NCBI GenBank assembly: GCA_016196885.1
Contig: JACPWU010000053.1
Location: 504 to 32,503 of the forward strand
DNA: 32,000 nt
Source of the DNA: Chlamydiota bacterium
GTDB taxonomy: Bacteria > Auribacterota > JACPWU01
Direction: 5' to 3'
The number at the start of each line of letters is the position of its first letter. Position 1 is the stretch's first letter. Below are positions 14,122 to 28,439 of the stretch, in pieces. The notes under the pieces were generated by a model that did no database searches, was not told the DNA's origin, and saw nothing but the letters and a program-made list of their open reading frames with translations. Position numbers and translations under genes: made by a program.

Positions 14122-14891
14122 TTGTTTTTAATGATTTCCACCTTTACCAACGTTGCAGTCACACTTCCAAAAGGGACTTTGGTTTTCACCAAGAGGGGAA
14201 GACGTCTGCGATCGTCCGAAACCCATGCCCAAACGCGGCCTCGCTTCTCAAACATTCCCTTAAATTGAGCCAGAGGTTCCACATAAAAAGCATTAAAAGT
14301 TCCGAGTCTGTGAACTTCCCAATTTTTTCGATAATCCTCTACTTGTACTTCCAACTTCCAATTTTTCTCATCGGCATTCACATCCATAAAACAACTCTCC
14401 CCCACTTTCATGGGGAAGGTTCGAAAAAAATAAATCGCCGAAAGGGTGTCTTGTACTTTGGGAGGGATCTCCATTTCCTTCACAGATCCATTTTTAAACG
14501 AATGATATCGAGCCGTATGTTTCTCCTGATCGTAAACCATCTCCTCATCCGAGTGGTAACCTCCCTCAGACTGCTTCTTACAAAAACGCCAGGAATAAAG
14601 GCCCTCCACATCAAAGTAGGTCTCTGCATAATCACGAACCTTATAAAAGGTCGAAAGAAACGAATTGGACCCGGCCTCCATCACGATGTGATAGACGCGA
14701 TGCCCTTCATATTCTTGAATCCCGTGCACATGAAGCGTGGCCCAACCGACTGGAATCACTCCCCAACGTAAAAGATAAGTCAACTTCTCACCCACCCTTG
14801 GACCGTGGGTCCCTGAAACTTCTTGAGCGTGAAGAGAAAAAGAAAATAAAAAGAAAATAAAAATTTTAGAAATCAGAAATCGAATCTCCAT
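14109..14891 (-). CDS. DUF3108 domain-containing secreted protein
   Basis: Signal peptide (MEIRFLISKIFIFFLFSFSLHA) and the DUF3108-like pattern GEKLTYLLRWGVIPVGWATL..FYKVRDYAETYFD. Start set at ATG 14891; the track start is TTG. Confidence 0.72.
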   Translation of the reverse strand: MEIRFLISKIFIFFLFSFSLHAQEVSGTHGPRVGEKLTYLLRWGVIPVGWATLHVHGIQEYEGHRVYHIVMEAGSNSFLSTFYKVRDYAETYFDVEGLYSWRFCKKQSEGGYHSDEEMVYDQEKHTARYHSFKNGSVKEMEIPPKVQDTLSAIYFFRTFPMKVGESCFMDVNADEKNWKLEVQVEDYRKNWEVHRLGTFNAFYVEPLAQFKGMFEKRGRVWAWVSDDRRRLPLLVKTKVPFGSVTATLVKVEIIKNKGEE

Positions 14892-14955
14892 AGATTTTTT
14901 AATGTATAACAACGTTCATGAAATTATGAAAGAAAAAAAATAGCATGCAATTTTT

Positions 14956-14980
14956 CTTTGAACCCTTAAACCTTTGAACC
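14956..14980 (+). repeat. Tandem octamer tract CTTTGAAC CCTTAAAC CTTTGAAC at the cyclase 3' end
   Basis: Direct reading. It encodes the cyclase C-terminal ..KGSKV and its stop. Confidence 0.8.
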
Positions 14981-16882
14981 TTTTTTATCGATAACTTCAT
15001 ACACAGCCACAGACCGCTCCATCCCCTTCACCTTGGTCTCCCCCAAAAATCGGGTCTCCCAATGATTTTCCACCCGTGCGTTCGTGGCCTGACTGATGAC
15101 GATCGGAACATCAAAAGACCTTGTGAGCCCTTCCAGTCGAGCCGCCAAATTTACCTCATCTCCCAAAACTGTATAATTCATGACATGAGAAGAGCCCACA
15201 TTTCCAACCACCATCCAACCCGTGTTGACTCCCACTCCGATAGAAAATGGCTCGTGACCGCGTGCCTTCCAATTTTGCTGAAGCTCCTTTAATTTCTTTT
15301 GCATTTGATAAGCCGCATTGACTGCGCACACCGCATGATTCTGAAACAGGGGAAGGGGCGCCCCAAAAATAGCCATGAGACCATCTCCCAAATACTTGTC
15401 CAAGGTTCCGCCACACTCCAAAATAATCTGGGTCATGGCGTCAAAATATTCGTTCAAAATCGAGATCACCTCTTCTGGCGTTTTTCGTTCACAATAAGAA
15501 GAAAAATTTTGAATGTCCGAAAAAAGAACGGTCAATTCCTCGCGTTTTCCTCCTAACGCCAGCCCTTGAGGATCTTTTAAGACTCTCTCCATCACCGCCC
15601 GTGAAACATAATGCTGAAAAGCTTTTTTAACATATCTTTTTTCTTTCTCTTCCGTCCAAAAACGATGGGTCGTTGAAATGAGATACGATCCCAAAATGGC
15701 CAATGAAGAAATCACCCATGGCAATTGAACATTCCACCTGCCGAACAACACAAAATCGCTCACCGTAAAAACCATCAGGATCGCCAGAGACCCTAAAGCA
15801 GCCCAAAGAGGTTCAGCCCCACAACTCACAAGACTCGTCACAAGACAAAGGCCAAAGAGCATCAACCCATAAGCCCAAAGCGGAACAATTTTAATAAAAT
15901 CCCTTTGCAAAATATTTTGGAGGGCATTGAAATGAACCATCACCAAAGGCGTATTGGGAGAAAGGGGAGTGGGCCCCACATCGGCCACGCCTGTCGCAGT
16001 GAACCCCACGACCACAATAGCATGGGGAAAGACCTTTTTTCTTTTTAAGACCTGATCAAAACGATAAGAGCGAATCTCATCCAAACCCGATCTAAAATTT
16101 ACCAGATAATCCCCTTCGCGATCGATCGGAATGAGAAGCGGGCCCTCTTTCAGCTTTAATTTCAAGAAGGGTCCTGGAAGAAGCTCCACATCCTGCCCCG
16201 AAAGATTGTAATATTGCATGATGAGCTTCAAGGTAAAACTCGGGAGAATCTGATCGCCATATTTGACCAGAAGGGGAATACGTCGAATAGAACCATCTAC
16301 ATCGCGGGGAACATTGATAAATCCCAAGGCACCATTCTGAGCAAGCTCTGGATATGGCATTTCTAATTCTTGAGCTGCTCGCAAGGAAAGATTTTCAGAT
16401 GAAATGCGGGTTAATCCTGAAAGCTCATTTTTCTGGACAATCTTAATTTGCCAATCCTCCAAAGGTTTTCCCCAAGTCTTCTCCATTCTAAAATAAGACG
16501 CATAGGTCAAGGTATCAAAGAGGCGGCTCATTTGCGCAAAATCATGATCGTCAGAAGGATGAGCCGTATCCGCCCCCTCAAAAAGGATGTCAAAACCTAA
16601 GGCAAGCGGAGGATTTTGAGAAAGGACTTGAAGAAGCGCTGCATGATAAGACCGTGACCAAGGCCACCGGCCCAGAACCTTAATCGCCCCATCATCAATC
16701 CCCACCAACATGAGTCTTGAATCAGCTCGGTCTAAACCTCGAAAGAAAAATTTGACATCCAGCCCCTTGAGTTCCATCAACCGAATGAAACGGCCTTGGG
16801 AAAGAAAAGAAAAGACGGTGAATGAGAGAACAGCAATCGCAAAACCTCTCTTCATCCACTTCCTTGAAAAAATGTTTGGCAT
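14966..16882 (-). CDS. CHASE2-sensor adenylate/guanylate cyclase (class III)
   Basis: N-terminal TM, a CHASE2-like periplasmic region (VGIDDGAIKVLGRWPWSRSYHA), TM bundle, and a C-terminal cyclase (VLFSDIQNFSS..YLGDGLMAIFGAP..GDEVNLAARLE). Start at ATG 16882. Confidence 0.88.
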   Translation of the reverse strand: MPNIFSRKWMKRGFAIAVLSFTVFSFLSQGRFIRLMELKGLDVKFFFRGLDRADSRLMLVGIDDGAIKVLGRWPWSRSYHAALLQVLSQNPPLALGFDILFEGADTAHPSDDHDFAQMSRLFDTLTYASYFRMEKTWGKPLEDWQIKIVQKNELSGLTRISSENLSLRAAQELEMPYPELAQNGALGFINVPRDVDGSIRRIPLLVKYGDQILPSFTLKLIMQYYNLSGQDVELLPGPFLKLKLKEGPLLIPIDREGDYLVNFRSGLDEIRSYRFDQVLKRKKVFPHAIVVVGFTATGVADVGPTPLSPNTPLVMVHFNALQNILQRDFIKIVPLWAYGLMLFGLCLVTSLVSCGAEPLWAALGSLAILMVFTVSDFVLFGRWNVQLPWVISSLAILGSYLISTTHRFWTEEKEKRYVKKAFQHYVSRAVMERVLKDPQGLALGGKREELTVLFSDIQNFSSYCERKTPEEVISILNEYFDAMTQIILECGGTLDKYLGDGLMAIFGAPLPLFQNHAVCAVNAAYQMQKKLKELQQNWKARGHEPFSIGVGVNTGWMVVGNVGSSHVMNYTVLGDEVNLAARLEGLTRSFDVPIVISQATNARVENHWETRFLGETKVKGMERSVAVYEVIDKKGSKV

Positions 16883-16947
16883 TGCCAAAGTGATCTCCAA
16901 ATGGTTACAATAGGCGTGTTCGTAAAGTCTGCAATACCCCAAGAAAT

Positions 16948-17024: not shown

Positions 17025-18347
17025 ATGAAAAAAATAATCCTCGCTTCTCTCTTTTTACTCATGGTTCTTTCACTTCTTCAAGCTTCTCCCATCCCCCAAC
17101 CCTTGATCCAATCCTTACAAGGAGAAGTCCAAATTCTTAAAACCCAGGGGAGCGAACCGGCCAAAACAGGAATGGCCCTTTCAACATCGGATATTCTTTC
17201 CACGGGACCTCATTCCTTTTGCGTGATCAAAATGGACGAAGAGAATTCCCTTCGTGTGAAGCAAAACTCCAAAATTAAAATCAAAAAAATATGGGAAGAG
17301 GTTCAAAAATCAGACGGCCGTGTGGTTCAGGAATACCGAGTGAATGTGACCCAGGGCGAGCTCACTGCCCAATTAGGAAAACTCCCCAAAGACAGCGAAT
17401 TCAAAGTCTCAAGCCCTGTCGCCGTCGCAGGAGCAAAAGGAACGGTTTACACAACAAGAGTAGAAGGAGAAAGCGGGAAGACACGGGTAAGCGTTCTAGA
17501 CCATGAAGTCTTAGTCGAAAGTTTGGACAGTCCTAACAAAACAGTCACTGTGCAAAAATTTAGATGGGTGGACACGGCCCCCTGGGACGAAACAACACTC
17601 AACGCAACAGGACGCGCTCTCCTCTCCGAGGCCATTTTAGGAAAAAATTTTGCGAAACAGGCGGAACAAAATGCACAAATTCAAGCTATCGGAACAGGCC
17701 CTTCCCCAGAGGAAGCCAAATTTAAGGCTACCTACAACCTATCCAGAATCGCCCTTCAACTCCATGTAGAACCAGAAAAAACCGTCGGCGCCTATATTTC
17801 TCAAAGCACGGAACAAACTCAAAAATTTTATCAGGCGATTGCAAAAGCACAAGTCACCGAGCCCACTCAAAAAGAAGACGGGTCCTTAGAGGCCAAGGCC
17901 CAAATCAATGTTAAAGATTTGGCAGAAGCTTTGAAACATCCCCTTTCAGGGATCACACAAAGCATCATTCCCGTCACCCTTTCCGAATACTCATCAAAAT
18001 TTGGAGCGCTGGCCCGCGTGACCACACAGCGAGCGGCCCAAGTAGAAGGATATCGAAACCTCGCCGAAATCATTTATGGCGTTGTGATCGACTCAAACAC
18101 CACCGTGCAAGACTTGGCCGTAAAAAATGACACGGTTCGCACAGTTGTTCAAGGCGTGGTCAAGGGAGCCAAGGTCGTGAACACTCAATACTTCTCTGAC
18201 GGCTCCGTCATTGTCTCTCTGGAAATTCAGGGAGGACTCATTCCTCAACAGTTAGGGACAACCACAGGCAATGTATTTGGACAAAATTATCTCTCGAGTC
18301 CCAGAATCGTCCAATACGATGAAATCGTAGATTATTTGAACCTTTGA
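17025..18347 (+). CDS. Secreted FecR-domain protein fused to two FlgP/LPP20-like domains
   Basis: Signal peptide, then a FecR-like N-terminus (GEVQILKTQGSEPAKTGMALSTSDILSTGPHSFCVIKMDEENSLRVKQNSKI). The C-terminus carries RAAQVEGYRNLAEIIYGVVIDSNTTVQDL..GAKVVNTQYFSDGSVIVSLEI, the same domain as the proteins at 21893-23786. A weaker copy lies at IQAIGTGPSPEEAKFKATYNL. Confidence 0.7.
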   Translation: MKKIILASLFLLMVLSLLQASPIPQPLIQSLQGEVQILKTQGSEPAKTGMALSTSDILSTGPHSFCVIKMDEENSLRVKQNSKIKIKKIWEEVQKSDGRVVQEYRVNVTQGELTAQLGKLPKDSEFKVSSPVAVAGAKGTVYTTRVEGESGKTRVSVLDHEVLVESLDSPNKTVTVQKFRWVDTAPWDETTLNATGRALLSEAILGKNFAKQAEQNAQIQAIGTGPSPEEAKFKATYNLSRIALQLHVEPEKTVGAYISQSTEQTQKFYQAIAKAQVTEPTQKEDGSLEAKAQINVKDLAEALKHPLSGITQSIIPVTLSEYSSKFGALARVTTQRAAQVEGYRNLAEIIYGVVIDSNTTVQDLAVKNDTVRTVVQGVVKGAKVVNTQYFSDGSVIVSLEIQGGLIPQQLGTTTGNVFGQNYLSSPRIVQYDEIVDYLNL

Positions 18348-18360: not shown

Positions 18361-19098
18361 ATGTTCCTTTTTCTTAGACTGCTTCTGGCTCATTTCATTG
18401 GAGATTTTCCCTTACAAATCGGCGTGGTTTATTCAGCCAAAGTAAAAAGTGTTCAAGGGAAAATACTTCACGCAGGCCTCGTCACCCTTTCCATGATTGT
18501 CTTTACCTGGCCTTACTGGAAAAATTGGATTTACTGGGGTCTAATCCTTTTCTTAGGAACGCTTCATTTCTTTCAAGACTGGGGGAAACTCGCCATTGCT
18601 CAGAGGATCAAAAATTCTAATAACTTTTTTCTCTACATGGCCGATCAAGTTCTTCATGTGGCCAGTTTCTTCATGATCTGGCTAACGCCCTTACCTCAAA
18701 TCCCGATGAGGGCGAGTCATTCTTTTTTCATCTCTGGACTCTACTTCAACGATAAAGTAACGATCTTTCTGATTGCTGTTTTGGCCGTGAGTTTTGCAGG
18801 GACTTTTACCCTGGCCACCTTCAAGGCCACTTTCCTGTCAGAACGGTTCTACACCCCCTATCTCGACCCCCTGGAGAAAAACTATGGAATTTTAGAAAGA
18901 GGCGTCATGCTCGAATTTTTGATTTTATCCCCGAAGCTCATCTGGCTTTTTCCCCTCTTCCTCCTCTCAAAATTCTTCTATGCCAACCACCAGATCAAAA
19001 AAATCGAAGGAAACCCCTTCACACCTTTTCTCTTGGACACCGTTCTGGGAATGATTTTAACGACCCTCATTTACAAAATATACACCCTCTTCTCCTGA
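18361..19098 (+). CDS. DUF3307 family membrane protein
   Basis: LLLAHFIGDFPLQ hallmark at the N-terminus and multiple TM helices. Starts 13 nt after the preceding gene. Confidence 0.7.
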   Translation: MFLFLRLLLAHFIGDFPLQIGVVYSAKVKSVQGKILHAGLVTLSMIVFTWPYWKNWIYWGLILFLGTLHFFQDWGKLAIAQRIKNSNNFFLYMADQVLHVASFFMIWLTPLPQIPMRASHSFFISGLYFNDKVTIFLIAVLAVSFAGTFTLATFKATFLSERFYTPYLDPLEKNYGILERGVMLEFLILSPKLIWLFPLFLLSKFFYANHQIKKIEGNPFTPFLLDTVLGMILTTLIYKIYTLFS

Positions 19099-19109
19099 TC
19101 AGGAGGCTT

Positions 19110-19171
19110 GACCAAAATGCACCCAATTGCATTTTGGTCTTGACTAAAATGCAATGGGGTGCATTTTGGTC
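19110..19171. repeat. Two adjacent 30-nt hairpins built from four copies of the 12-mer GACCAAAATGCA
   Basis: GACCAAAATGCA cccaat TGCATTTTGGTC tt GACTAAAATGCA atgggg TGCATTTTGGTC. The two loops are nearly complementary to each other. Confidence 0.9.
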
Positions 19172-19253
19172 ACTATGGATAGAATCCAAAAAAAGCTTAA
19201 AACACTACATCACTTCGGCTCTGAGTGATCCTCAAAAAGAAAGATCTTTCGTC

Positions 19254-19281
19254 CCCAGCCCTTTGTTAACAAAGGGCTGGG
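19254..19281. repeat. Perfect 28-nt palindrome CCCAGCCCTTTGTTAACAAAGGGCTGGG
   Basis: Self-complementary over all 28 nt. Lies 35 nt downstream of the CsgG-like stop. No flanking T-tract on either strand. Confidence 0.9.
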
Positions 19282-19315: not shown

Positions 19316-20266
19316 TCAACCCTCAAACTTCAAAACATCGCCGCGTTGAAAACCACCCCCCCCTACTGTGGTTGCAATTGAAAATTTATCCTGAACTTGA
19401 GAAACTTGAATCAGGCCAATTTTGGTGAGTTCAGAACCCAAATCCATTCCGGTGTCAGGATCCACCAAGGTTTCACCTGGACGATAGACTGTAAGCGTAT
19501 CCCCCATCTGAATACCCGCCGAAGCTCCGGCATTGACAAACACTTTACCCTCCGGCTTCACATCCACAATGCGACCCAACCAAGGAACACTTTGCATACG
19601 ACCCACAATAAAAAAAACAGACTTATCAATCGCCTGCTGACAAGCCTGGCCCAAAGGCGTCTTATCAAAACCCGCTCCACCAAAGGCAAAGTCGCTGTCC
19701 GTGTACGAAAAGGAAAGACCTCCCGCTTCAGCAATTCCTTCACAATGTTGAGAGTCCAAAACCTGACCGGTGGTTGTATCATAGATACGAATATTGACAC
19801 CCACCTTGGCCCGCGATTGATTGGCCCCAATGCGAAAACCATGAACAGCAAATCCACCGCCCTCGCCCCCGCCAGAGGCTTCAAATTCAGTCACAGCGCC
19901 ACTGATCATGATTTGACTCTTAAGAATTTTTCCAATCTTGGCCGCCTCTCCACCCGCCGTGCGACCACTGACTCCAAAATCTTGTTCAGCAATCACCTTT
20001 TCAATTTCGGGACGCTCCACCACAATAAAACGCCCGCTTCGAATGAGTGCAGTGGTCAACATCTCGGCCATGCCATTGCCCAAATCCCATTTGGCCCACT
20101 GACCTGCCTTATTTTCAAAAGTCCCGACCGCAATGGTTTTCTTAGGGCCACTGGGAGCCGGCAAGGCCGCCACAGGAGCCGCCTTCACGGGATACGCAAA
20201 GGCCCCGCCCACTGAACACAAAAGTGAAGCAATCGCTAAAACACTCAAAACCTTCATCTTTTTCAT
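19316..20266 (-). CDS. CsgG/HfaB-family outer-membrane protein with a ~90-aa C-terminal extension
   Basis: Signal peptide MKKMKVLSVLAIASLLCSVGGAFA. CsgG pattern TIAVGTFENKAG..WDLGNGMAEMLTTALIRSGRFIVVERPEIEKVIAEQDF...ISGAVTEFE. Start at ATG 20266 with AGGAG upstream. The track's 35-codon N-terminal extension translates the 100-nt repeat element. Confidence 0.85.
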   Translation of the reverse strand: MKKMKVLSVLAIASLLCSVGGAFAYPVKAAPVAALPAPSGPKKTIAVGTFENKAGQWAKWDLGNGMAEMLTTALIRSGRFIVVERPEIEKVIAEQDFGVSGRTAGGEAAKIGKILKSQIMISGAVTEFEASGGGEGGGFAVHGFRIGANQSRAKVGVNIRIYDTTTGQVLDSQHCEGIAEAGGLSFSYTDSDFAFGGAGFDKTPLGQACQQAIDKSVFFIVGRMQSVPWLGRIVDVKPEGKVFVNAGASAGIQMGDTLTVYRPGETLVDPDTGMDLGSELTKIGLIQVSQVQDKFSIATTVGGGGFQRGDVLKFEG

Positions 20267-20301
20267 GACCTTTAGATTTCTCCTTTCACAAATTAATTTC
20301 G

Positions 20302-20404
20302 ATGATCTTTCGAGATCATCGTATGCAATGAAAGTTCTCCCCATCATGTTTTTTGTAGTCGCCCGATTCATCGGGCAGCCCCATAAATGGGGCGACTACA
20401 AAAA
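20302..20404 (+). repeat. ~100-nt GC-rich structured repeat element, copy B
   Basis: Same orientation as copy A. Over the ~100-nt core I count 4 substitutions plus a 2-nt length difference in the T-run. Lies 36 nt upstream of the CsgG-like start codon. Confidence 0.9.
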
Positions 20405-20417
20405 GAACCTATTCTGG

Positions 20418-21560
20418 CTAAAGAGGTGCTTGTCTTTCCCCAACCCACTTCACATCAATACGGTTTTGAGATTTTGCCGTGACCGCCAAGGCAATGCCGG
20501 GAAGATTCTCTAAGTGAACATCAAAATCTTTCCAGATCGCCCCATCCACAGTCAAATCTAAAATCAAAATATTATTCACAAAACTTCTTTCATTCACACT
20601 CTGAATTCCTCGAATTTCTTCCAAGGTCTTGACAAGCATTTGCTTCGCAGTCGCATTCACACCACTGGCTACCACTTGAATGTTCACCACGTTATAGGCC
20701 TCGCTACGCATTTTCTCAACCATTTCACTCATCAATTTATCTGCCAATTGCCCAGCCCCGAACCGAAGGGCATCCTTAGCAGTTGGAATGCGACCGCCGC
20801 CCCTGGCTTCTCCTTCAACATCATCAGACACCATCACTTCAGCTGTATCTGTTTTAATCACCCGAGCTGAAATCTGGGAGCGGTAAGCAAAAACAGAAAC
20901 GCCGTAGGGTCTAGAATGATCAATCAAATCTGCCGTGGCCTGCCCCACCACCACCATCTCTGCTCCAGATTGACGTCCCAGGGCAGCTGCTTTTTGAGGG
21001 TCGGCATAACTCAAGGCCGCATCTCTTTCCTTAATCATCTGTATCTGATTTTTGTCCACCAGAGGAAAATCCTTGGCAAGAAAAGCCCTCTCCATTTCAG
21101 TTTGAGTCACGGCACCTGCCTGCTCCAATCCATCAATCAATTCAGCAAAAATGAACATCACCCTTGGATTTTCCCGACGCTTCATCGTAATCTTAAGCGC
21201 CTTCAAATTCTTTTCCAAAAGGCCCAAGGCAACCACCGCCCGAACACGAATCACATAAAGCCCATCTTGACCTTGATTATCATTAATCACTTCATAGCTT
21301 GTGACATAACCCTTCACCTGAGAATAGACTTGATCGTCCAAAAGCTGAAAATTGCTGACCATGGTTTCAGAATCAATAATCGAACCCACGCCCTGCTCAA
21401 TGGCATTCCTGAGCGCCCGATTCAAAGCCTCATCATGGGCCTGCAAACTATTTCCTACAGATTTCCCCTCAGCTTCAATCGCTGTCTCAGCAACTTGAGC
21501 AGAAAGTTGAAAACCTGAAAGCATCCCTAATAATGTAAAAAACATGATCCATCTTTTCAT
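20418..21560 (-). CDS. FlgT-like periplasmic protein (LPP20/FlgT_N-like N-domain plus an alpha/beta middle domain and a C-domain)
   Basis: Signal peptide, then AEGKSVGNSLQAHDEALNRALRNAIEQGVGSIIDSETMVSNFQLLDDQVYSQVKGYV..LYVIRVRAVV, which resembles FlgT N-terminal/LPP20-type domains. ~380 aa, similar in size to Vibrio FlgT. Assignment by eye. Confidence 0.5.
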   Translation of the reverse strand: MKRWIMFFTLLGMLSGFQLSAQVAETAIEAEGKSVGNSLQAHDEALNRALRNAIEQGVGSIIDSETMVSNFQLLDDQVYSQVKGYVTSYEVINDNQGQDGLYVIRVRAVVALGLLEKNLKALKITMKRRENPRVMFIFAELIDGLEQAGAVTQTEMERAFLAKDFPLVDKNQIQMIKERDAALSYADPQKAAALGRQSGAEMVVVGQATADLIDHSRPYGVSVFAYRSQISARVIKTDTAEVMVSDDVEGEARGGGRIPTAKDALRFGAGQLADKLMSEMVEKMRSEAYNVVNIQVVASGVNATAKQMLVKTLEEIRGIQSVNERSFVNNILILDLTVDGAIWKDFDVHLENLPGIALAVTAKSQNRIDVKWVGERQAPL

Positions 21561-21583
21561 CTAAGTTTTTCCTTTCTTAACCT

Positions 21584-21665
21584 GTCGTGAGTCGTCGGTC
21601 GTGAGTCGTGAGTAAAAACAAATACTTTTTAAACTCACGACTCACCCCTCACGACTCAAGACTAC
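21584..21665. repeat. Inverted tandem-heptamer element with conserved core (mini-lipoprotein|FlgT-like junction)
   Basis: GTCGTGA GTCGTCG GTCGTGA GTCGTGA G / taaaaacaaatactttttaaa / CTCACGA CTCACCC CTCACGA CTCAAGA CTAC. Confidence 0.9.
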
Positions 21666-21799
21666 TCGACCACTTCCGTCTGTTCTACCACCGTTTCATT
21701 CATAACATCTGTATGATGCTCATGAGGTGCTTCACAACCCCAAAGATTCGTAAGAATGACAGCCACATAAGCAACACCCATCCATTTGAAAAGCTTCAT
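21662..21799 (-). CDS. 45-aa putative lipoprotein
   Basis: Below the track cutoff: MKLFKWMGVAYVAVILTNLWGCEAPHEHHTDVMNETVVEQTEVVE. Has a lipobox-like LWGC and GGAG ~9 nt upstream. Bracketed by two repeat elements. Confidence 0.45.
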   Translation of the reverse strand: MKLFKWMGVAYVAVILTNLWGCEAPHEHHTDVMNETVVEQTEVVE

Positions 21800-21820
21800 G
21801 GTCTCTTCTCCTTGTTTTAA

Positions 21821-21884
21821 CAGTCGTCAGTCGTGAATGTTAAAGGTATTGTTTATTTTTTTACTCATCCTCACCCCTCACCAC
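21821..21884. repeat. Heptamer element with the conserved core in inverted orientation and non-matching arms
   Basis: CA GTCGTCA GTCGTGA / atgttaaaggtattgtttattttttta / CTCATCC TCACCCC TCACCAC. The core is the reverse complement of the taaaaa..ttaaaa core seen elsewhere. Confidence 0.8.
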
Positions 21885-21892
21885 AGCTTTTA

Positions 21893-23215
21893 TTACATTC
21901 TATACTTCCTCAACTTCTCCCACAAGCCCGCCAAAGACAACTGTACATCCACTTGAGCACTTCCATCTTCCAAATAACGAGGCTCACTCACTTGAGCCCC
22001 CGCCAAAAAAGTTTGAACCTGGGCATGGATGTCGTCATTCTGAACGGTAAAGTCCTTCACCGTGGTTTGAGAATCAATCCTAACCCCATAAACCATTTCA
22101 GCTAAATTCCGCTTGGCGTCCATTTCAGCAGCCCTGGCAGCCGCTAGTTTGGCTTCCATTCCCGTTTGCCCTTCAGGTGGGATACCCGTCCCTGTCGCAC
22201 TCACCACTTGGAGAGCCCACTCAGGGGTCGTGGGTTGGACCATGGCCACAGGTCCCTGCGCTTCTTGAGGAGCTGTCATGTATTTCTCAGGAGGAACTCC
22301 TTCTCCCGTGACACGGATGACTTTCTTAGGATAAAAATCCAGAACCTCCTCAAACTTGGTGGTTCTCAAATGCTCATGAGCCCAATGATGATAAGGATCG
22401 TAGTGAATGTACCAATCGCGAATGGTGGTCAACTCCTTCACCACCGTTTGAATCGCCACTTCCACATCCACTTGGCAAGTCCCATCGGGAAGATAACGAT
22501 AAGGTCCTGCAGTTCTCATCCCCTTGATAAAAGTATCTACCTTGGTTGTGACCTGATCGGACTCCGCCACAAAATCACGAACGTACGTATCAGCCGTGAT
22601 CTGAAGTCCCTTGATTCGCTCCGCCATGTTGCGATAGGCATCTACCTTTGCTGCCCGTTCAGCCATCATACGGCCCTGAGCCGTCACACTCTCCCAACCA
22701 GGAACTCCTGTACTGGGCACTGCGGAAACACTTTCACCCATGGGAGGAAGAGGAGCCTCACCTGGATTCAAACGAGGGGCCCCATGGCCGGTCTCACGAA
22801 TGACTTTTTGACGATTGACGGTGACCATTTGGTCGAATGAATACACGTGATCGTGGCACAAATGATGATACACGGTGTAAACCCTTTGCAACTGCTGCAC
22901 CACTTCTTCCAAGGTTACCTCCACACTCACCTCAGCCGAGCCATCTTCAAAATAACGGGGAGGACCCACGCGAACACCCTTGATAAAAGTGTCCAGCTCT
23001 GTATTGATTTCATCGGCCTCGGCCACAAAATCACGAACATACGTGGTCGCATTGATCTGTAAACCTTTGATTCTTTCAGCCAAATTACGATAGGCATCCG
23101 CTACGGCAGCCCGCTTCGCCAAAAGCTTTTCTTGCGCTGGTTGCAAGGCCCACGACGGACTGGCCATTACCCACGCAAAAGCAAACAACGTTAAAACACT
23201 CGCTAACTTTTTCAT
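21893..23215 (-). CDS. Secreted protein with three tandem FlgP/LPP20-like domains
   Basis: Signal peptide MKKLASVLTLFAFAWVMASPSWA. Three repeats of RAA..DAYRN(L/M)AE.I.G..I...T.V.DF.......v..FikG......Y..DGs..V.V. Start at ATG 23215 with GGAGG 8 nt upstream; the track start is GTG 23221. Confidence 0.7.
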   Translation of the reverse strand: MKKLASVLTLFAFAWVMASPSWALQPAQEKLLAKRAAVADAYRNLAERIKGLQINATTYVRDFVAEADEINTELDTFIKGVRVGPPRYFEDGSAEVSVEVTLEEVVQQLQRVYTVYHHLCHDHVYSFDQMVTVNRQKVIRETGHGAPRLNPGEAPLPPMGESVSAVPSTGVPGWESVTAQGRMMAERAAKVDAYRNMAERIKGLQITADTYVRDFVAESDQVTTKVDTFIKGMRTAGPYRYLPDGTCQVDVEVAIQTVVKELTTIRDWYIHYDPYHHWAHEHLRTTKFEEVLDFYPKKVIRVTGEGVPPEKYMTAPQEAQGPVAMVQPTTPEWALQVVSATGTGIPPEGQTGMEAKLAAARAAEMDAKRNLAEMVYGVRIDSQTTVKDFTVQNDDIHAQVQTFLAGAQVSEPRYLEDGSAQVDVQLSLAGLWEKLRKYRM

Positions 23216-23270
23216 ATACACTCCCTCCTCTTTCGCTTTTGAACTTCAGATTTTATAGTCCCTGTAGGGA

Positions 23271-23786
23271 TTAAACCCTTGAACCTTCTATTTCCTCCCA
23301 TTCCCCCTGAGAAATTTCTTCCGTTTTGTCATCCACCACATAAACTGGAACACCATAAACTCTCATACGCCGAGAAAAGCAAGCCTCATCATCACACGGA
23401 TGAACCAAGCTGACATCCAAAACCATCTTCACTTGAACCCCGCCATCTGGTAAATAAACTTTCTCGATCACCTTAGCACCGCGAATAAATCCTGTCTCAG
23501 AAATAATAGAAGAGCCATCTCTTAACTCTAGACTCATTCGAGAAAGGGTGCGGGCGAGATTGTAATAAGCCTTCACTTTTGCGGCTCGCTCAGCCAAGAG
23601 TCTGGCCTGGGCGAGAGAACGACCTTGAGGAGCTTCACCTCTTCCAAGCGCTTCAAGACTCATGCTTGAAGGACTTTGTTGAACGGTTTCGCGATTCACA
23701 GTCACGATGACATCTTCCCCCTGTGCAAAACCGAATACTCCTTGTAAGAAGAAAAGTGTTGTTATTATAGAGCGAGCTTTTGTCAT
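23271..23786 (-). CDS. Secreted protein with one FlgP/LPP20-like domain
   Basis: Signal peptide, then ARLLAERAAKVKAYYNLARTL...GFIRGAKVIEKVYLPDGGVQVKMVLDV. Confidence 0.65.
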   Translation of the reverse strand: MTKARSIITTLFFLQGVFGFAQGEDVIVTVNRETVQQSPSSMSLEALGRGEAPQGRSLAQARLLAERAAKVKAYYNLARTLSRMSLELRDGSSIISETGFIRGAKVIEKVYLPDGGVQVKMVLDVSLVHPCDDEACFSRRMRVYGVPVYVVDDKTEEISQGEWEEIEGSRV

Positions 23787-23835
23787 AAATCAATGCCTTT
23801 GTTGTCTTGGCCCTGTCCAATATACCGCAACTTTC

Positions 23836-24138
23836 TTAATAATAACACTCCTCATAATACACCGGACGATGATAATAAGAATAAGCAGGATACCGATGCC
23901 AGCAATTGTGATAAGGATAGGGATATGCATCATAAACAGGCTGAGCAGGATAGCAAGGCTGTGCATAATAATAATCGCCATGAGAATGATAAGCAGAATC
24001 CGCAATGATGGCACCTGTCACCAAACCCACGGCCGCTCCTGCTGCCGCCCAACCCCAATCATCTGAATGAGCATGAGAAGGAACTGCATTCATTAAAAAA
24101 AGACTGACAAGCGCTAAAACCAATATTGTTTTTTTCAT
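23836..24138 (-). CDS. Small secreted Tyr/Pro/His-rich protein with a glycine-zipper segment
   Basis: MKKTILVLALVSLFLMNAVPSHA signal, GWAAAGAAVGLVTGAIIA glycine zipper, then a tail with 17 Tyr in 77 mature residues. GGAGG 8 nt upstream of ATG 24138; an in-frame ATG at 24153 is also possible. First gene after the sigma-54 promoter. Confidence 0.6.
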   Translation of the reverse strand: MKKTILVLALVSLFLMNAVPSHAHSDDWGWAAAGAAVGLVTGAIIADSAYHSHGDYYYAQPCYPAQPVYDAYPYPYHNCWHRYPAYSYYHRPVYYEECYY

Positions 24139-24170
24139 TTGACGAACCTCCATTTCTAAGTGTCAGAAAA

Positions 24171-24185
24171 GCAAAAAAGATGCCA
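24171..24185 (-). promoter_or_regulatory. Sigma-54 (-24/-12) promoter
   Basis: The minus strand reads TGGCATCTTTTTTGC, against the consensus TGGCAC-N5-TTGC, with GG and GC exactly 12 nt apart. It lies ~33 nt upstream of ATG 24138 and faces the divergent sigma-54 activator gene. Confidence 0.6.
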
Positions 24186-24302
24186 AACATAAAATATTTC
24201 TATAACTCATTCTTGTGAAATGTGTTATATCTTTTCTTGCTTCAACCCGCAAAAAACGAATGTTTTAAAATGGAGCAAAATGTGGTAATAAACAAGTGTC
24301 TG

Positions 24303-24316
24303 AGTGCTTAAGCACT
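24303..24316. promoter_or_regulatory. Perfect 14-nt palindrome AGTGCTTAAGCACT; candidate activator binding site (UAS) or autoregulatory operator
   Basis: Perfect dyad 12 nt upstream of the activator ATG and ~120-145 nt upstream of the sigma-54 promoter, a typical enhancer distance. Function is inferred only. Confidence 0.3.
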
Positions 24317-24327
24317 GATTTCGTCAC

Positions 24328-25860
24328 ATGCAAATCAACCAAATCATCAACGAATTAGGAAAAGAAAGCCTTGGAGAATTGATTAAGGTCAGTACCCTTA
24401 TCAATTCTTCCCTAGACCTTTCTGAAATTCTGACCCATGTCATGGAGCTTACCAATAGATTGTTAAATTGCGAGGCAAGCTCTCTTCTTTTACTGAATGA
24501 AAAAACCAATGAGCTCTCTTTTAAAACAGCCACAGGCGAAAAAGCTCAAGACATGAAGGCCTTCAATCTCAAAATGGGTCAAGGGATTGCGGGCTGGGTC
24601 GCTCAGAAGGAAAAGGCGGTGATTATTCCAGATGTTGAAAAAGATCCCCGCCATTTCAGCCAAGCCGATTCCAAAACCGGATTCAAAACCAAATCCATTC
24701 TTTGCGTCCCCATGAAAGCCAAAGGTCAATTGATTGGTGTTTTGGAAGGGATTAACAAAAAAGAAAATTTAGTTTTTGATGAAGCGGATCTTTCCTTGGC
24801 TTCCATTCTTGCGGATCAAGCTGCGACGGCCATTCAAAATGCCAGGGTTTATGAAGAACTCCAGCAAGACCATGAAAATCTAAAAAAAGAAGTACGGCCC
24901 AAGCAAACATTGGTCGGAAAATCTAAAATTATTCAAGATATTTTAAAAATGGCAGGCCGAGCAGCTCAAGGAGATTCTACCCTCTTGATTCGCGGGAAAA
25001 GCGGCACGGGAAAAGAAATGCTTGCCCGCGCCATCCACCAATTGAGCCCACGATCCAACAAGCCTTTTGTTTGTGTCACGTGCTCTATTCTGACCCAGAC
25101 ACTCTTGGAGAGTGAACTTTTTGGCCACGAGAAGGGGGCCTTTACGGGAGCCGATTCCAGAAAAATCGGCCGATTTGAAATGGCTGATGGCGGGACGCTC
25201 TTCTTAGACGAAATCGGAACCCTGGCCCCAGAAACACAACTTCGACTCTTGAGAGTTCTTCAGGACAAGGAATTTGAACGCGTGGGTGGACGAGAAACCA
25301 TCAAGGTCAATGTACGCATCATCGCTGCCACCAATGAAGATTTGGAGAAAGGGATTCAGGAAAATAAATTTCGTGAGGACCTTTATTATCGCTTGAAGGT
25401 GATTGAGATTTTCATGCCTGAGCTGAAAGATCGATCTGAAGATATTCCGATTCTTGCCCAGCATTTTTTAGAAATTTACTCTCGTGAAATGGCCCGTCCT
25501 GTCAAAGGAATTTCTAAAGAAGCGATTGAAATTTTAAGAAATTATCACTGGCCAGGAAATGTTCGGGAACTGAAAAACACCATCGAGCGATCGGTCGTTT
25601 TAGGGTCCAGTGAATACATTGTCTCCGAGGACTTGACTACAGAAATTCGTCATCCCCGTGAGGGAGCTACATCGCTTCCTTCAAGAGAGGGTCCATCGCA
25701 ACTTCCTTCCGGAAACACCCTTGAAGAAGCAGAAATTCGCCATATTCAGGAGATACTCGTCAAAACCAACGGCAATAAAAGCAAAGCCGCCGAACTCCTC
25801 GGCATTTCCAGAAATCGCCTCGACCGAAAATTGGCAGGGATTAAACCGGCCGCGAAATGA
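24328..25860 (+). CDS. Sigma-54-dependent transcriptional activator (GAF + AAA+ + Fis-type HTH)
   Basis: N-terminal GAF-like domain, GKSGTGKEMLARAIH Walker A, ESELFGHEKGAFTGA (GAFTGA loop), and the C-terminal HTH KSKAAELLGISRNRLDRKL. No receiver domain. Confidence 0.93.
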   Translation: MQINQIINELGKESLGELIKVSTLINSSLDLSEILTHVMELTNRLLNCEASSLLLLNEKTNELSFKTATGEKAQDMKAFNLKMGQGIAGWVAQKEKAVIIPDVEKDPRHFSQADSKTGFKTKSILCVPMKAKGQLIGVLEGINKKENLVFDEADLSLASILADQAATAIQNARVYEELQQDHENLKKEVRPKQTLVGKSKIIQDILKMAGRAAQGDSTLLIRGKSGTGKEMLARAIHQLSPRSNKPFVCVTCSILTQTLLESELFGHEKGAFTGADSRKIGRFEMADGGTLFLDEIGTLAPETQLRLLRVLQDKEFERVGGRETIKVNVRIIAATNEDLEKGIQENKFREDLYYRLKVIEIFMPELKDRSEDIPILAQHFLEIYSREMARPVKGISKEAIEILRNYHWPGNVRELKNTIERSVVLGSSEYIVSEDLTTEIRHPREGATSLPSREGPSQLPSGNTLEEAEIRHIQEILVKTNGNKSKAAELLGISRNRLDRKLAGIKPAAK

Positions 25861-26002: not shown

Positions 26003-27160
26003 ATGTTAAACAGATACGTTGAACTCCCTCTGAAACAATCCTTTTTTCTCTTTGGATCCCGCCAAACAGGGAAGAGCACGCTCATTCAAACGCACACCCC
26101 TGAAAAGACTTGGAAGATAGACCTTCTTTCATCTGACCTTTTTTTTAAATACTCCAGAGACCCTTCTTTATTCCGTCAAGAGGCAGAGGAAAAGATTAAA
26201 AACGAAAAAATACATACTATTTTTGTAGATGAGATTCAGAGAGTCCCCATTCTGTTAAATGAAATTCAGTCATTGATGGGCCTATGGAATGGGCAATTCA
26301 TTCTGACAGGGTCTAGCGCAAGAAAACTTAAGAAAGGAGGCGCTAATTTATTGGCCGGAAGAGCCGTTGTCAAATATCTATTCCCCCTCATCTATGAAGA
26401 ACTGAAAGATGGATTTAAGTTAGAAGAGGTTCTTCTCTTTGGAACCCTGCCTGCCATTTTGGGTAAAACAAAAGAGGAAAAAATTCAGATTCTCTCCACC
26501 TATGCAAACACTTACCTAAGGGAAGAAATTCAGAGCGAAGGAATTGTCAGAAATCTAGGAGGATTTTCACGGTTTCTAGATTTGTCTGCAAGTCAGTCTG
26601 GAGAACTGGTCAGTTTCTCAGCCATTGGACGAGAATGCCATTTACCTACACGAACGGTTCAATCTTACTACGAAGTTTTAGAAGACACCCTAATCGGCTT
26701 TAGACTTGAGGCCTGGGAAAAATCAATCAGAAAACGTTTAGTCAGTCATCCTAAGTTCTATTTTTTTGATCTGGGCGTAACAAATGCGATCAACCGGTGT
26801 CTGAAAGGGGGATTGCCCTCGCCTCTCAAGGGACGGCTTTTTGAACAATTTGTTATTCTAGAAACCTATCGCCTACTCCATTATCATGAAAGTGAAGCGA
26901 GGCTTTTTTTCTGGAGAACCAATCATGGAGCTGAAGTTGATTTACTTATTGAAAAACATGGAGAAATGATCGGTGCCTTTGAAATCAAATCCTCTTCAAA
27001 TATTGCAAAGGCGGATTTATCCGGTCTAAAATCCTTTCAAGAGGATTTTCCAAAAACACCTTGCGCCCTTGTCTCGACGGCAATCCATGCTTACCAAATC
27101 GATTCGATCAAAATCTTGCCCTGGCAGGTTTATTTAGAGAAGATATCTTCCCTTCTATAA
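26003..27160 (+). CDS. AAA-family ATPase with C-terminal DUF4143 (COG1373 type)
   Basis: FLFGSRQTGKSTL Walker A, IFVDEIQ Walker B, and a typical DUF4143 C-terminal half. Confidence 0.85.
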   Translation: MLNRYVELPLKQSFFLFGSRQTGKSTLIQTHTPEKTWKIDLLSSDLFFKYSRDPSLFRQEAEEKIKNEKIHTIFVDEIQRVPILLNEIQSLMGLWNGQFILTGSSARKLKKGGANLLAGRAVVKYLFPLIYEELKDGFKLEEVLLFGTLPAILGKTKEEKIQILSTYANTYLREEIQSEGIVRNLGGFSRFLDLSASQSGELVSFSAIGRECHLPTRTVQSYYEVLEDTLIGFRLEAWEKSIRKRLVSHPKFYFFDLGVTNAINRCLKGGLPSPLKGRLFEQFVILETYRLLHYHESEARLFFWRTNHGAEVDLLIEKHGEMIGAFEIKSSSNIAKADLSGLKSFQEDFPKTPCALVSTAIHAYQIDSIKILPWQVYLEKISSLL

Positions 27161-27208
27161 AAGATAGAACCAGCGAATCAACGAATTTATATAAAAATTT
27201 ATTTGCTG

Positions 27209-27237
27209 TTGAAATCTTTTTTTAAACATATTAATAT
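27209..27237 (+). promoter_or_regulatory. Sigma-70-type promoter for the RelE/RHH pair
   Basis: TTGAAA, 17 nt, TAATAT. The -10 ends 9 nt before ATG 27247 and no Shine-Dalgarno is present. Confidence 0.45.
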
Positions 27238-27246
27238 CTATATAGA

Positions 27247-27504
27247 ATGAAATATAGAATAGAACTCAGGAAATCCGCAGAAAAGGCTTTAGGCAAACTT
27301 GATGCTAAAAAGCGGGGGTATGTTTATGTAAAGTTACTGGAATTAGGAGAAAATCCTCGGGACCGCAAATGCGAGAAATTAAAGGGGATTGAACAGGGTT
27401 ATCGTAAGGTCGCGTGGCCTTATCGTATTTTGTACACGATTAATGACGAACATAAAATTGTAGACGTTTATTTAATTGCTCATAGAGAGGAGGCTTATCG
27501 GTGA
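27247..27504 (+). CDS. RelE/ParE-family type II toxin
   Basis: Y.IE....A.K.L.KLD......V..KL.EL.ENP......KL.G....YR.....YRILY.I.D....V.V..I.HR..AY pattern; 85 aa. Confidence 0.85.
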   Translation: MKYRIELRKSAEKALGKLDAKKRGYVYVKLLELGENPRDRKCEKLKGIEQGYRKVAWPYRILYTINDEHKIVDVYLIAHREEAYR

Positions 27505-27725
27505 AAACAATTTCCATTGGGTTTGAAGACTCGTTATTTAATGAAATGAATGAAAAAGCAAAGATATTAAAAACAACACGTTCTGAACTCGTTCGGAATG
27601 CCATCATGGAATATCTCTTTCGGTTTGACGAGATCTTAGACGCAAAAATGTTACAGCATGCGATTGAAAAAGATGAATCGAAAAAATCATTAAACCAAAT
27701 TGCCCATGAACTTGGATTGGCGTAA
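27501..27725 (+). CDS. Ribbon-helix-helix (CopG-like) antitoxin
   Basis: GTG start overlapping the toxin stop (GTGA). N-terminal RHH pattern ISIGFEDSLFNEMNEKAKILKTTRSELVRNAIMEYL. Confidence 0.72.
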   Translation: MKTISIGFEDSLFNEMNEKAKILKTTRSELVRNAIMEYLFRFDEILDAKMLQHAIEKDESKKSLNQIAHELGLA

Positions 27726-27772
27726 GGCAATCCGTCTTATCCACTCGTTCCAAACAACCTAAAAAAACAATT

Positions 27773-28078
27773 TTACGCTGCTTGACCCAGCTTATAAATG
27801 TGAACCTCTCGTTCAAGACGTTTGCCTAAATGGTCTTTTCCAATTTCTATATCGTACCTGACTTGCAGATTCATCCAAAAGCGTTCTGAGGTTCCGAAAT
27901 AGCGTGAGAGTCTGAGGGCTGTATCTGTACTAATGCTACGGTCTCCATGCACAATTTCATTGATGCGGCGGGCAGGAACAGAAATATCCTTTGCAAGTCG
28001 GTATTGACTGATTCCCATCGGTCTTAAAAACTCTAACAACAATATTTCTCCTGGATGAACCGGGCTCATTTTTTTCAT
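27773..28078 (-). CDS. higA: HigA-family antitoxin (XRE HTH)
   Basis: HPGEILLLEFLRPMGISQYRLAKDISVPARRINEIVHGDRSISTDTALRLSRYFGTSERFWMNLQ is the classical HigA signature. Confidence 0.88.
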   Translation of the reverse strand: MKKMSPVHPGEILLLEFLRPMGISQYRLAKDISVPARRINEIVHGDRSISTDTALRLSRYFGTSERFWMNLQVRYDIEIGKDHLGKRLEREVHIYKLGQAA

Positions 28079-28103
28079 TTTAATTGACTCCCTTTCCTAG
28101 GGT

Positions 28104-28385
28104 TTAATGATAATCAACCATCTCAACTCGATAGGCACGGCCATTCGCCCATTCAAAACAAATACGCCATTGTTTGTTAACCCGAATGCTATATTGATCT
28201 CTTCTTTTACCAAGCAACTTTTCAAGATGATTAGAGGGTGGTATTCTTAGATCTTCCAAAACTTCGGCCGCATCCAGCAACATCAACTTCCTAAGCGCCG
28301 CAGCTTGAATATCCTGAGGTAATTTCCGAGAACCCTCTCGGCAAAATATTCGCTCAGTTTCTTTACATCTAAAATTTTCAATCAC
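28104..28385 (-). CDS. higB: HigB-family toxin (RelE fold)
   Basis: IENFRCKETERIF....R.LP.DI...A.RKL..L......EDL..PP.N.LE.L.G.R..QYSIR.N.QWRICF.W......V...DYH. Start set at GTG 28385, which gives the typical ~93 aa. An upstream GTG at 28439, abutting the giant ORF stop, is the alternative. Confidence 0.82.
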   Translation of the reverse strand: MIENFRCKETERIFCREGSRKLPQDIQAAALRKLMLLDAAEVLEDLRIPPSNHLEKLLGKRRDQYSIRVNKQWRICFEWANGRAYRVEMVDYH

Positions 28386-28391
28386 AGGAGA

Positions 28392-28420
28392 ATAATAACA
28401 TGAGGCGTTAATAACGTCAA
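28392..28420 (-). promoter_or_regulatory. Sigma-70-type promoter for higBA
   Basis: The minus strand reads TTGACG, 17 nt, TATTAT, then 6 nt, then GTG 28385. No Shine-Dalgarno is present. Confidence 0.4.
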
Positions 28421-28439
28421 AAGGTATTCTTAAAAACAC

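Follow-up and report, generated by a model that had tools for sequence, protein, structure and literature searches.

The proteins FlgT and FlgP have been studied only in high-torque flagellar motors, and CsgG only in curli. TsaP, of type IV pili, forms a periplasmic ring around the secretin. In the flagellar structures FlgT and FlgP form 26-mer rings, and the C-terminal tail of FlgP docks into FlgT (bioRxiv 10.64898/2025.12.04.692373). In Acinetobacter baumannii a CsgG-GNA1162 cluster affects the surface matrix, and its loss lowers poly-N-acetylglucosamine (PNAG), pili and biofilm (bioRxiv 10.1101/2021.05.19.444899). FecR and CHASE2 are paired in a Burkholderia biofilm operon, which is a known sensory arrangement (PMC5192318). 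Here we analyze a stretch of 32,000 nucleotides (nt), positions 504 to 32,503 of the 32.5-kb contig JACPWU010000053.1, which is called the window below. It comes from a groundwater metagenome-assembled genome (MAG) labelled 'Chlamydiae bacterium', which has its relatives among Auribacterota (Aureabacteria), Omnitrophota and other candidate lineages allied with them. The window carries a conserved operon of six genes, g1 to g6, in which the CsgG, FlgT and FlgP folds are combined without flagella or curli.

Our preferred reading, which we hold tentatively and at slightly less than even confidence, is that the locus encodes a non-flagellar, Sec-exported outer-membrane complex. In this complex g6 would form a ring or pore, the FlgT-like and FlgP-like proteins would add further rings, the small lipoprotein g4 would act as a tether, and a surface component would be exported or held. 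While the parts are known folds, their combination, their independence from flagella and curli, the breadth of the family and its regulatory wiring appear undescribed. Literature searches produced no paper treating CsgG-like with LPP20 proteins, FlgT with FlgP and CsgG, CsgG with FlgT, or DUF799 with DUF4810, and the module does appear undescribed, as an earlier annotation made from the letters of this DNA (the sequence-only reading) had proposed. That reading had also presented the locus as a novelty of unknown cargo. The locus does not stand alone, however, but represents one branch of a very large uncharacterized family that includes GNA1162-like partners.

Six co-oriented genes for secreted proteins

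All six co-oriented genes that had been described on the minus strand, from 24138 down to 19316, were found at those positions in the open reading frame (ORF) list. From g1 to g6 they are separated by 49, 49, 93, 101 and 151 nt, if the start of g6 is taken at 20266. Each of the six products begins with a signal peptide, and only g4 has a lipobox; the same pattern is seen across the family. A scan of the operon for sigma-70 promoters and intrinsic terminators gave nothing above the shuffled expectation, and no terminator was found in the gaps.

The CsgG-family protein and its FlgT-like partner

The last gene, g6 (19316-20266, minus strand), encodes 316 residues in the annotation of the source MAG (P0121), and its open frame reaches further, to 20371. 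The protein matches Pfam CsgG (PF03783) with an E-value of 1.7e-34 (119.4 bits, cutoff 20.8) over profile positions 8-207 of 210, and Pfam FlgT_C with an E-value of 5e-8 (33.7 bits, cutoff 27). Several homologues have precomputed matches to FlgT_M. In searches of the PDB, the g6 family profile found CsgG at 4e-14, with the first transmembrane hairpin (TM1) of E. coli CsgG aligned free of gaps, and the C-terminal domain found TsaP-type chains (6ve2_O, 5e-11; 3jc8, 2.8e-8). Both hairpins also align in a BLASTP comparison with an E. coli CsgG sequence that is confirmed only in part by the profile alignment.

At the TM1 and TM2 positions, where the hairpins of the nonameric CsgG channel form a 36-strand barrel, g6 has two putative amphipathic hairpins of nearly matching length. 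Across 33 homologues they conserve alternating hydrophobic residues, F139/V141 and F144/I146/A148 in the first hairpin and L184/F186/Y188 and F193/F195/F200 in the second. We predicted the structure of the g6 monomer with AlphaFold2 (AF2) from an alignment of protein-search hits. The model has a mean predicted local distance difference test score (pLDDT) of 76 and a predicted TM-score of 0.71. Its hairpins have a low pLDDT, which is as expected because these segments may fold only in the oligomer. In Foldseek searches the best match of the model was FlgT (8z5n_0, 2.5e-17, TM-score 0.59 over 301 columns), followed at about 1e-9 by CsgG; PelC rings were among the weaker matches of both this model and that of g5.

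Hence, the description of g6 as a CsgG-family protein with an additional C-terminal domain holds by sequence, and the additional domain can now be named as the FlgT_C/TsaP ring domain, a beta-sandwich, but the structure as a whole is nearer to FlgT. The g6 protein looks like CsgG bearing the C domain of FlgT, and it is a candidate outer-membrane pore or ring. As the family is CsgG by sequence and FlgT (M and C domains) by its best structural match, these results suggest that FlgT_M is a CsgG-derived domain. No paper mentioning CsgG and FlgT together was found in the literature searched.

The preceding gene, g5 (20418-21560, minus strand), encodes a secreted FlgT-like protein of 380 residues. 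Its own Pfam matches are below threshold (FlgT_N, 0.011, 16.7 bits against a cutoff of 28.8; CsgG, 0.013), and homologues of g5 exceed the FlgT_N threshold. The AF2 model (pLDDT 75) has Vibrio FlgT as its best Foldseek match (8z5n_0, 2.5e-11; 3w1e, 1.3e-9), in alignments of about 400 columns with a low TM-score of 0.22-0.32, and the matches that follow are GNA1162, CsgG, HpaA and PelC. The protein appears to consist of three domains: the N domain resembles LPP20/FlgT_N, the middle one resembles CsgG/FlgT_M, and the C domain is specific to the family and has no match to FlgT_C. In an hhalign comparison the middle domain aligns to that of g6 and is shorter by about 7 and 13 residues at two hairpins. 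The g5 protein looks like a FlgT that no longer has the barrel hairpins in its M domain. Together with the LPP20 results below, these searches uphold the CsgG-like, FlgT-like and FlgP/LPP20-like assignments of the original annotation.

Both g5 and g6 have FlgT, a ring protein that does not form a pore, as their best structural match, and this could also mean that the complex transports nothing. It would then be a structural scaffold or tether, a disk or collar under the outer membrane, comparable to a flagellar basal disk or H-ring that has no flagellum. Such a disk would make the membrane stiffer or connect it with the cell wall, and the g6 hairpins would serve merely as anchors. FlgP disks and H-rings are structural, Kdo/Lpt envelope genes lie beside the cluster in the window, there is no universal cargo gene, and the module of a distant branch of the family (described below) includes a TPR protein with an SLH cell-wall-binding domain. 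However, g6 is by sequence a member of the CsgG family and retains counterparts of the two barrel-forming CsgG hairpins, which are lost in g5, Pfam finds no SLH or other peptidoglycan-binding domain in the window, and a tight sigma-54/cyclic AMP (cAMP) switch suits an inducible surface function better than a constitutive scaffold. We consider the scaffold unlikely, though it deserves to be kept in mind.

The LPP20/FlgP-like proteins

The domain shared with FlgP is present in the window in seven copies, as had been claimed: a hidden Markov model (HMM) built solely from the three repeats of g3 recovers all seven, three in g3, two in the FecR-domain protein encoded downstream of the operon, one in g2 and one at the N-terminus of g5. 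The g3 protein (21893-23221, minus strand; secreted, 442/440 residues) has three such domains in tandem and matches Pfam LPP20 (PF02169) at 3e-15 (56.8 bits, cutoff 25.9). By sequence, its third domain matches FlgP chains of the PDB (9hmf_C, 7e-9; Vibrio FlgP 8z5n_2, 2.6e-6), and the alignment of the g3 family is conserved from end to end. In the secreted g2 protein (23271-23786, minus strand; 171 residues) the single domain at residues ~48-126 is found with the g3-repeat HMM at 4.6e-8 and matches nothing in Pfam; the gene is syntenic in 16 loci. Both proteins and nearly all of their homologues have signals of the signal peptidase I (SPase I) type and are not FlgP-style lipoproteins. A metal-site reading of the His-rich linkers in g3, g4 and g1 was dropped, as the linkers are not conserved in the family.

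The remaining two copies are fused to a FecR domain in a secreted protein encoded on the plus strand at 17025-18347 (Pfam FecR, 4e-10; LPP20, 4e-7, 30.7 bits against a cutoff of 25.9). A FecR-domain gene adjoins the cluster in 12 close loci.

The small secreted proteins

The first gene, g1 (23836-24138, minus strand), encodes 100 residues counted from MKK and has no Pfam family. In its product a signal peptide is followed by a Gly-zipper helix and by a tail of low complexity that is rich in Tyr (31%) and has a terminal acidic/aromatic motif. Small Tyr-rich proteins follow the sigma-54 promoter in eight loci. Their tails contain 19-39% Tyr, and they fall into two sequence types, both ending in a similar V/Y-rich acidic motif. 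The g1 protein is a candidate cargo or matrix component.

The g4 gene (21662-21799, minus strand) encodes a mini-lipoprotein of 45 residues with the lipobox LWGC, a mature part of about 23 residues and the C-terminal motif VVEQxEVVE, and has no Pfam family. At its position nearly all related loci encode lipoproteins of 41-79 residues ending in ..VVE. In the Auribacter-type loci (L004, 9433-10014; L021, 9209-9936; L018, 9369-9909) the single g4 is replaced by three to four tandem mini-lipoprotein genes, whose mature products start with CTY(H/N)EHYY.. and end with ..YVVE. These loci have no adjacent activator gene, yet they show a sigma-54-like motif before g2.

Conservation and breadth of the family

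With one genome taken per species, an HMM-mapped scan gave 31 loci. The order g2-g3-(g4)-g5-g6 is syntenic in about 20 of them, from several candidate phyla (Auribacterota, Omnitrophota and related lineages), which answers the conservation check proposed with the original annotation; a second g6 paralogue is often present. Out of 1.84 billion, the g5 profile matched 786 representatives (clusters at 50% identity) with E<=1e-30, a number that rises to 4086 with E<=1e-10, and the best-scoring representatives match over their full length. None of ten distant representatives that were looked up has an informative name, and the FlgT-like family has hundreds of diverged, unnamed members in environmental metagenomes.

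A distant branch, ~25-30% identical to g5, was collected by scanning metagenomes with a tight subfamily alignment, and the neighbors in the resulting 80 loci were clustered without prior labels. The module that emerged is LPP20 - TPR+SLH - g5-like - (GNA1162-like, PF05643) - CsgG+FlgT_C - (PEGA lipoprotein) - FecR-domain. Of the 80 loci, 40 include CsgG and 30 include FecR; among the 18 loci with enough flank, FecR is found in 15. No CHASE2, activator or DUF3307 gene accompanies the module in these 80 loci. As LPP20, the FlgT-like protein, CsgG-FlgT_C and FecR stay together even here, these four are the evolutionary core, and the FecR-LPP20 gene, which lies outside the segment originally outlined, therefore belongs to the system. 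The system is larger than that segment. The sigma-54/GAF activator, the CHASE2 cyclase, DUF3307, g1 and g4 are additions in the lineage of the window. The GNA1162-like partners tie the module to the proteobacterial 'csgG cluster'.

Other distant g5 members adjoin CHASE2 receptors and a sigma-54 activator, or come after ABC-2 transporters. In a deltaproteobacterial locus (L034, 4839-11137) and a Nitrospiraceae locus (L035, 8200-11759) a CsgG-like/FlgT-like pair directly follows an ABC-2 transporter, and the former also encodes a GldG-like ABC_transp_aux protein and a CsgG-TPR fusion. In L042 (4562-14666) a distant g5 homologue of 957 residues is fused to TPR repeats. One flank encodes a CHASE2 histidine kinase, a response regulator and a sigma-54 activator, and the other a CHASE2 cyclase; genes for a CsgG+PEGA protein and giant PKD-repeat proteins follow.

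Such neighborhoods raise the question of whether the substrate is a glycan rather than the Tyr-rich protein, that is, whether the complex exports or anchors a polysaccharide or glycoconjugate in the manner of PelC/PelB or of the HfaB holdfast anchor. Besides the ABC-2 transporter genes before the Nitrospiraceae and deltaproteobacterial pairs (with the GldG-like auxiliary in L034), this explanation draws on the glycosyltransferase genes that flank the cluster in Auribacter-type loci, the PelC rings among the structural matches and the lowered PNAG and matrix of A. baumannii upon loss of its csgG cluster. However, the operon of the window and most related loci have no glycosyltransferase or polysaccharide export gene, and PelC is matched less well than FlgT and CsgG are. 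A glycan device is therefore improbable in our estimate.

Absence of flagellar and curli genes

The original annotation had stated that the window contains neither curli nor flagellar genes, and none was found among the larger window ORFs, which were the ones scanned. No flagellar family was present in these or in the Pfam-annotated flanks of related loci; the flanks of L007-L037 were checked only with the HMMs of the cluster families. The window proteins scanned had no match to Curlin_rpt, CsgE or CsgF (CsgA/B/E/F) and included no HfaA or HfaD homologue. The flagellar partners MotX/MotY and FlgH/FlgI are not present. There are no flagellar genes among the conserved neighbors of the 80 metagenome loci either. 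The proposed search for orthologous clusters embedded in a flagellar locus gave none.

According to Williams et al. 2022 (PMC9324843), no Auribacterota MAG from Ace Lake encodes flagella, and Auribacter fodinae is flagellated. The cluster is present in the Ace Lake MAG of Tritonobacter lacicola (L017), and g5 or g6 homologues occur in Theseobacter and Erginobacter. The cluster-bearing Auribacterota MAGs that are reported to have no flagellar genes are 88-95% complete. In the flagellated A. fodinae the cluster sits among glycosyltransferases.

Flagellar accessory genes are often sigma-54 dependent. Along with the similarity to FlgT and FlgP and the flagella of cluster-bearing A. fodinae, this would fit a divergent H-ring or basal-disk locus that simply lies apart from the remaining flagellar genes. 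The occurrence of the cluster in nearly complete MAGs reported without flagellar genes, the missing MotX/MotY and FlgH/FlgI partners and the empty flanks and neighborhoods, within the coverage given above, largely refute a displaced H-ring locus, and we regard it as highly improbable.

Transcriptional control

A sigma-54 type -24/-12 promoter had been recognized before g1. The motif (TGGCATCTTTTTTGC, TGGCAT-N5-TTGCT) is located at 24171-24185 on the minus strand, 33 nt before the g1 start, and its -24 GG and -12 GC elements are correctly spaced. Taken alone it is not above chance, with 1.46 matches expected per window; at the equivalent position it recurs in all ten related loci with a divergent activator and in four more, that is, in 14 of the 16 loci examined.

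The divergent gene (24328-25860, plus strand) encodes a sigma-54 enhancer-binding protein with the Pfam domains GAF, Sigma54_activat (1.7e-69) and HTH_8, as had been described, and the GAFTGA motif of its AAA+ domain is seen in the translation. It is divergent from the cluster in ten loci. The nearest solved relatives of its GAF domain are the cAMP/cGMP-binding GAF domains of Anabaena CyaB2 (4e-26) and of phosphodiesterases (1e-20 to 1e-26), whereas GAF domains of sigma-54 regulators match at 2e-12 or weaker. These similarities suggest a GAF domain of the cyclic-nucleotide type.

Divergent from the FecR gene, on the minus strand at 14966-16942 (the start codon is uncertain), Pfam identifies a CHASE2 sensor joined to a class III adenylate-cyclase domain. 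The cyclase domain keeps both metal-binding Asp residues, the adenine-specifying Lys (DKYLGD), the Asn and the Arg, and its best PDB match is P. aeruginosa CyaB (2e-39). This gene adjoins the FecR gene in eight loci. Thirteen nt downstream of the FecR gene, at 18361-19098 on the plus strand, lies a gene for a polytopic DUF3307 membrane protein (Pfam, 8.7e-14); the DUF3307-FecR pair is conserved in ten loci and absent from the distant branch. In this lineage DUF3307 and the CHASE2 adenylate cyclase accompany the cluster. A GAF domain of the cyclic-nucleotide type and a neighboring CHASE2 protein of the adenylate-cyclase type suggest a cAMP relay. A DUF3108 protein (6e-40) is encoded directly downstream of the cyclase, at 14109-14912. 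At the corresponding position, L002 and L003 instead encode a GAF-SpoIIE phosphatase, an anti-sigma kinase, a STAS partner-switching set and MlaE/MlaF.

Since FecR-CHASE2 pairs are known sensory operons, the LPP20, FlgT-like and CsgG-like proteins might themselves form a periplasmic sensory scaffold, which mainly presents or relays an envelope signal to FecR-domain proteins and CHASE2 receptors and builds no effector machine. The FecR-domain protein is a core partner in both branches of the family, that of the window itself bears two LPP20 domains, and CHASE2 genes abut distant g5 homologues. On the other hand, what the sigma-54 promoter regulates as its output in this lineage is the six genes themselves, a co-sensor made of four to seven secreted multi-domain proteins would be costly, and CHASE2 is absent from most of the distant branch. 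A purely sensory role therefore appears quite unlikely to us.

A model of the proposed outer-membrane complex

In the preferred reading, that of a non-flagellar outer-membrane complex, g6 would oligomerize into an outer-membrane ring or pore, with the FlgT_C/TsaP-like domain as its periplasmic collar. The g5 protein together with g2 and g3, which have four LPP20 domains between them, may build further periplasmic rings beneath the pore, similar to FlgT and FlgP around the flagellar L/P ring. None of g6, g5, g2 and g3 has a lipid anchor such as those of FlgP and CsgG; g4 probably tethers the assembly as a lipid anchor in trans, by docking its conserved C-terminal ..VVE strand. The g1 protein, encoded by the first gene after the promoter, has a similar C-terminal motif and is the foremost candidate for a cargo or matrix component, which could be exported or retained at the surface with no need for ATP, as happens in curli secretion. 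The periplasmic FecR-LPP20 protein and the CHASE2 adenylate cyclase may sense an envelope signal, and cAMP might then bind to the GAF domain of the enhancer-binding protein, which would activate the sigma-54 promoter. The original description of the assembly as periplasm-spanning is unsupported: the operon has no inner-membrane or ATPase component.

Several observations weigh against this model. FlgT, which gave the best structural match of g6, is a soluble ring protein. Each strand of the g6 hairpins has only about three lipid-facing residues, which is short for a membrane span, and in the BLASTP alignment, with the partly confirmed sequence, the constriction loop is seven residues shorter than that of E. 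coli CsgG. Only 8 of the 36 members of the family show a lipobox, and g6 is not among them: its signal is of the SPase I type (..AFA/YP). The g5 and g6 models are monomers of moderate pLDDT (75-76). As g1 is missing from many related loci, including the Auribacter-type loci and the whole distant branch, it is not a universal cargo. The link between cAMP and the GAF domain rests on similarity and adjacency only, and the proposed relay is lineage-specific, as the distant branch has neither CHASE2 nor the activator. Finally, rpoN was not found in the window and is missing from its usual position between lptB and hpf, where lptB is directly followed by hpf. The envelope/phosphotransferase system block at 1413-12353, to which these genes belong, otherwise has the classical order (KdsB, CTP synthase, KdsA, KdsD, KdsC, LptC, LptA, LptB, HPF, HPr kinase, HPr and enzyme I).

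The model can be extended to a bolder proposal, which we regard as doubtful in its entirety. The system might be the first recognized widespread non-flagellar 'H-ring-like' outer-membrane nanomachine, with a CsgG-type pore and FlgT_C collar, FlgT-like and FlgP-like rings around it and a FecR partner, which would export or anchor surface material, here the Tyr-rich protein. In this lineage it would be switched on by a cAMP relay from FecR and the CHASE2 cyclase through the GAF activator to sigma-54. The g6 family would then be an evolutionary bridge, and the FlgT and FlgP of Vibrio and Campylobacter flagella would have been recruited from an older envelope module. If the module does form a ring or pore, it represents a new class of outer-membrane assembly and provides a concrete hypothesis for the origin of flagellar accessory rings. 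The orphan CsgG-GNA1162 clusters of pathogens (Neisseria, Acinetobacter) are linked to a broader system, and the CHASE2 and FecR sensor domains gain a candidate pathway through cAMP and a GAF-sigma-54 activator.

Repeats and other genes of the window

The larger gaps of the operon had been reported to be filled by repeat elements, and this is the case. The heptamer GTCGTGA occurs 24 times in the window, where 3.4 matches are expected by chance. Its inverted copies form arrays resembling the hairpins of repetitive extragenic palindromic (REP) elements at 6032-6110, 14042-14071, 21584-21662 (the g4-g5 gap) and 21823-21838 (a related copy in the g3-g4 gap), all intergenic and including the lptB/lptA gap in addition to the two operon gaps. 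In the g5-g6 gap the repeat scan found a nested 27-nt palindrome (20350-20404). The interval between the convergent g6 and DUF3307 genes contains a palindrome at 19107-19172, whose 31-nt arms are 94% complementary and each palindromic themselves, and a perfect 14+14 palindrome at 19254-19281; these are candidate bidirectional terminators or members of another repeat family. Rfam and tRNA scans of the window were empty.

Beyond the activator, the region 26003-28439 contains a DUF4143/AAA_14 ATPase gene followed by apparent toxin-antitoxin pairs: a RelE/ParE-like protein with a small antitoxin (27247-27725, read from the translation only) and a HigB-like toxin (Pfam, 2.8e-22) with an adjacent XRE/HigA-like ORF (27773-28078). 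An ORF of 1184 residues on the minus strand (28440-31994), which ends near the window edge, has no Pfam match at E<=0.001.

Comparison with known systems

The closest known structures are the Vibrio H-ring and the Campylobacter FlgP basal disk. FlgT is the best structural match of g5 and g6, the FlgT_C domain is present in g6, and the FlgP/LPP20 domain is present in g2, g3, the N domain of g5 and the FecR protein; in Vibrio these folds stack rings under the outer membrane. Unlike the H-ring genes, the cluster has no flagellar genes in its neighborhood and is found in organisms that have no flagella, and its FlgP-like proteins are not lipoproteins, one of them having three tandem domains. In addition, the parts of FlgT are split here: the N and M domains with a new C domain are found in g5, and the M and C domains in g6, where the M domain is a true member of the CsgG family with barrel-type hairpins.

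With CsgG and HfaB the locus shares a protein, g6, that passes the Pfam CsgG threshold and aligns to E. coli CsgG through both transmembrane hairpins. As in the curli system, the components are Sec-exported without an ATPase, and the operon encodes a small secreted protein of odd composition. The locus differs in having no CsgA/B/E/F or HfaA/D homologues and in the g6 protein itself, which has no lipid anchor, a shorter constriction loop and the added FlgT_C/TsaP-like domain; its accessory proteins are FlgT-like and FlgP-like. The proteobacterial 'csgG cluster' (GNA1162 of Neisseria; D1G37_12595-12605 of A. baumannii), which consists of a CsgG-like protein with GNA1162/DUF799-type and other lipoproteins, likewise combines a CsgG-family gene with small envelope proteins of the TolB_N/CsgG fold, and in the distant g5 branch a GNA1162-like (PF05643) gene lies between the FlgT-like and CsgG genes. 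The window itself has no GNA1162-like gene detectable with Pfam and adds the FlgT-like, multi-LPP20, mini-lipoprotein and Tyr-rich proteins, the FecR partner and the sigma-54/cAMP control.

By its C-terminal domain g6 resembles TsaP-type chains, whose FlgT_C-like domains it matches, but g6 has no LysM domain and the cluster no secretin or pilus genes. The regulatory half resembles the Burkholderia 'BiofilmReg' operon (a response regulator, LysM-FecR, a CHASE2 kinase and DUF4136). In both, the gene of a secreted FecR protein lies beside that of a CHASE2 receptor, and the FecR protein has an extra domain by which it could attach to a structure of the envelope. In the window, however, the extra domain is a pair of LPP20 domains and not LysM, the output is an adenylate cyclase and not a histidine kinase, and the proposed downstream reader is a GAF-sigma-54 activator. 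Lastly, NCBIfam gives weak matches to Leptospira proteins, of g5 to LipL46 (4e-6) and of the FecR protein to Lsa33 (1e-16) and LipL45 (7e-9). As all of these scores are far below the family cutoffs, the Leptospira proteins, which in contrast to g5 and the FecR protein are lipoproteins, are distant relatives only.

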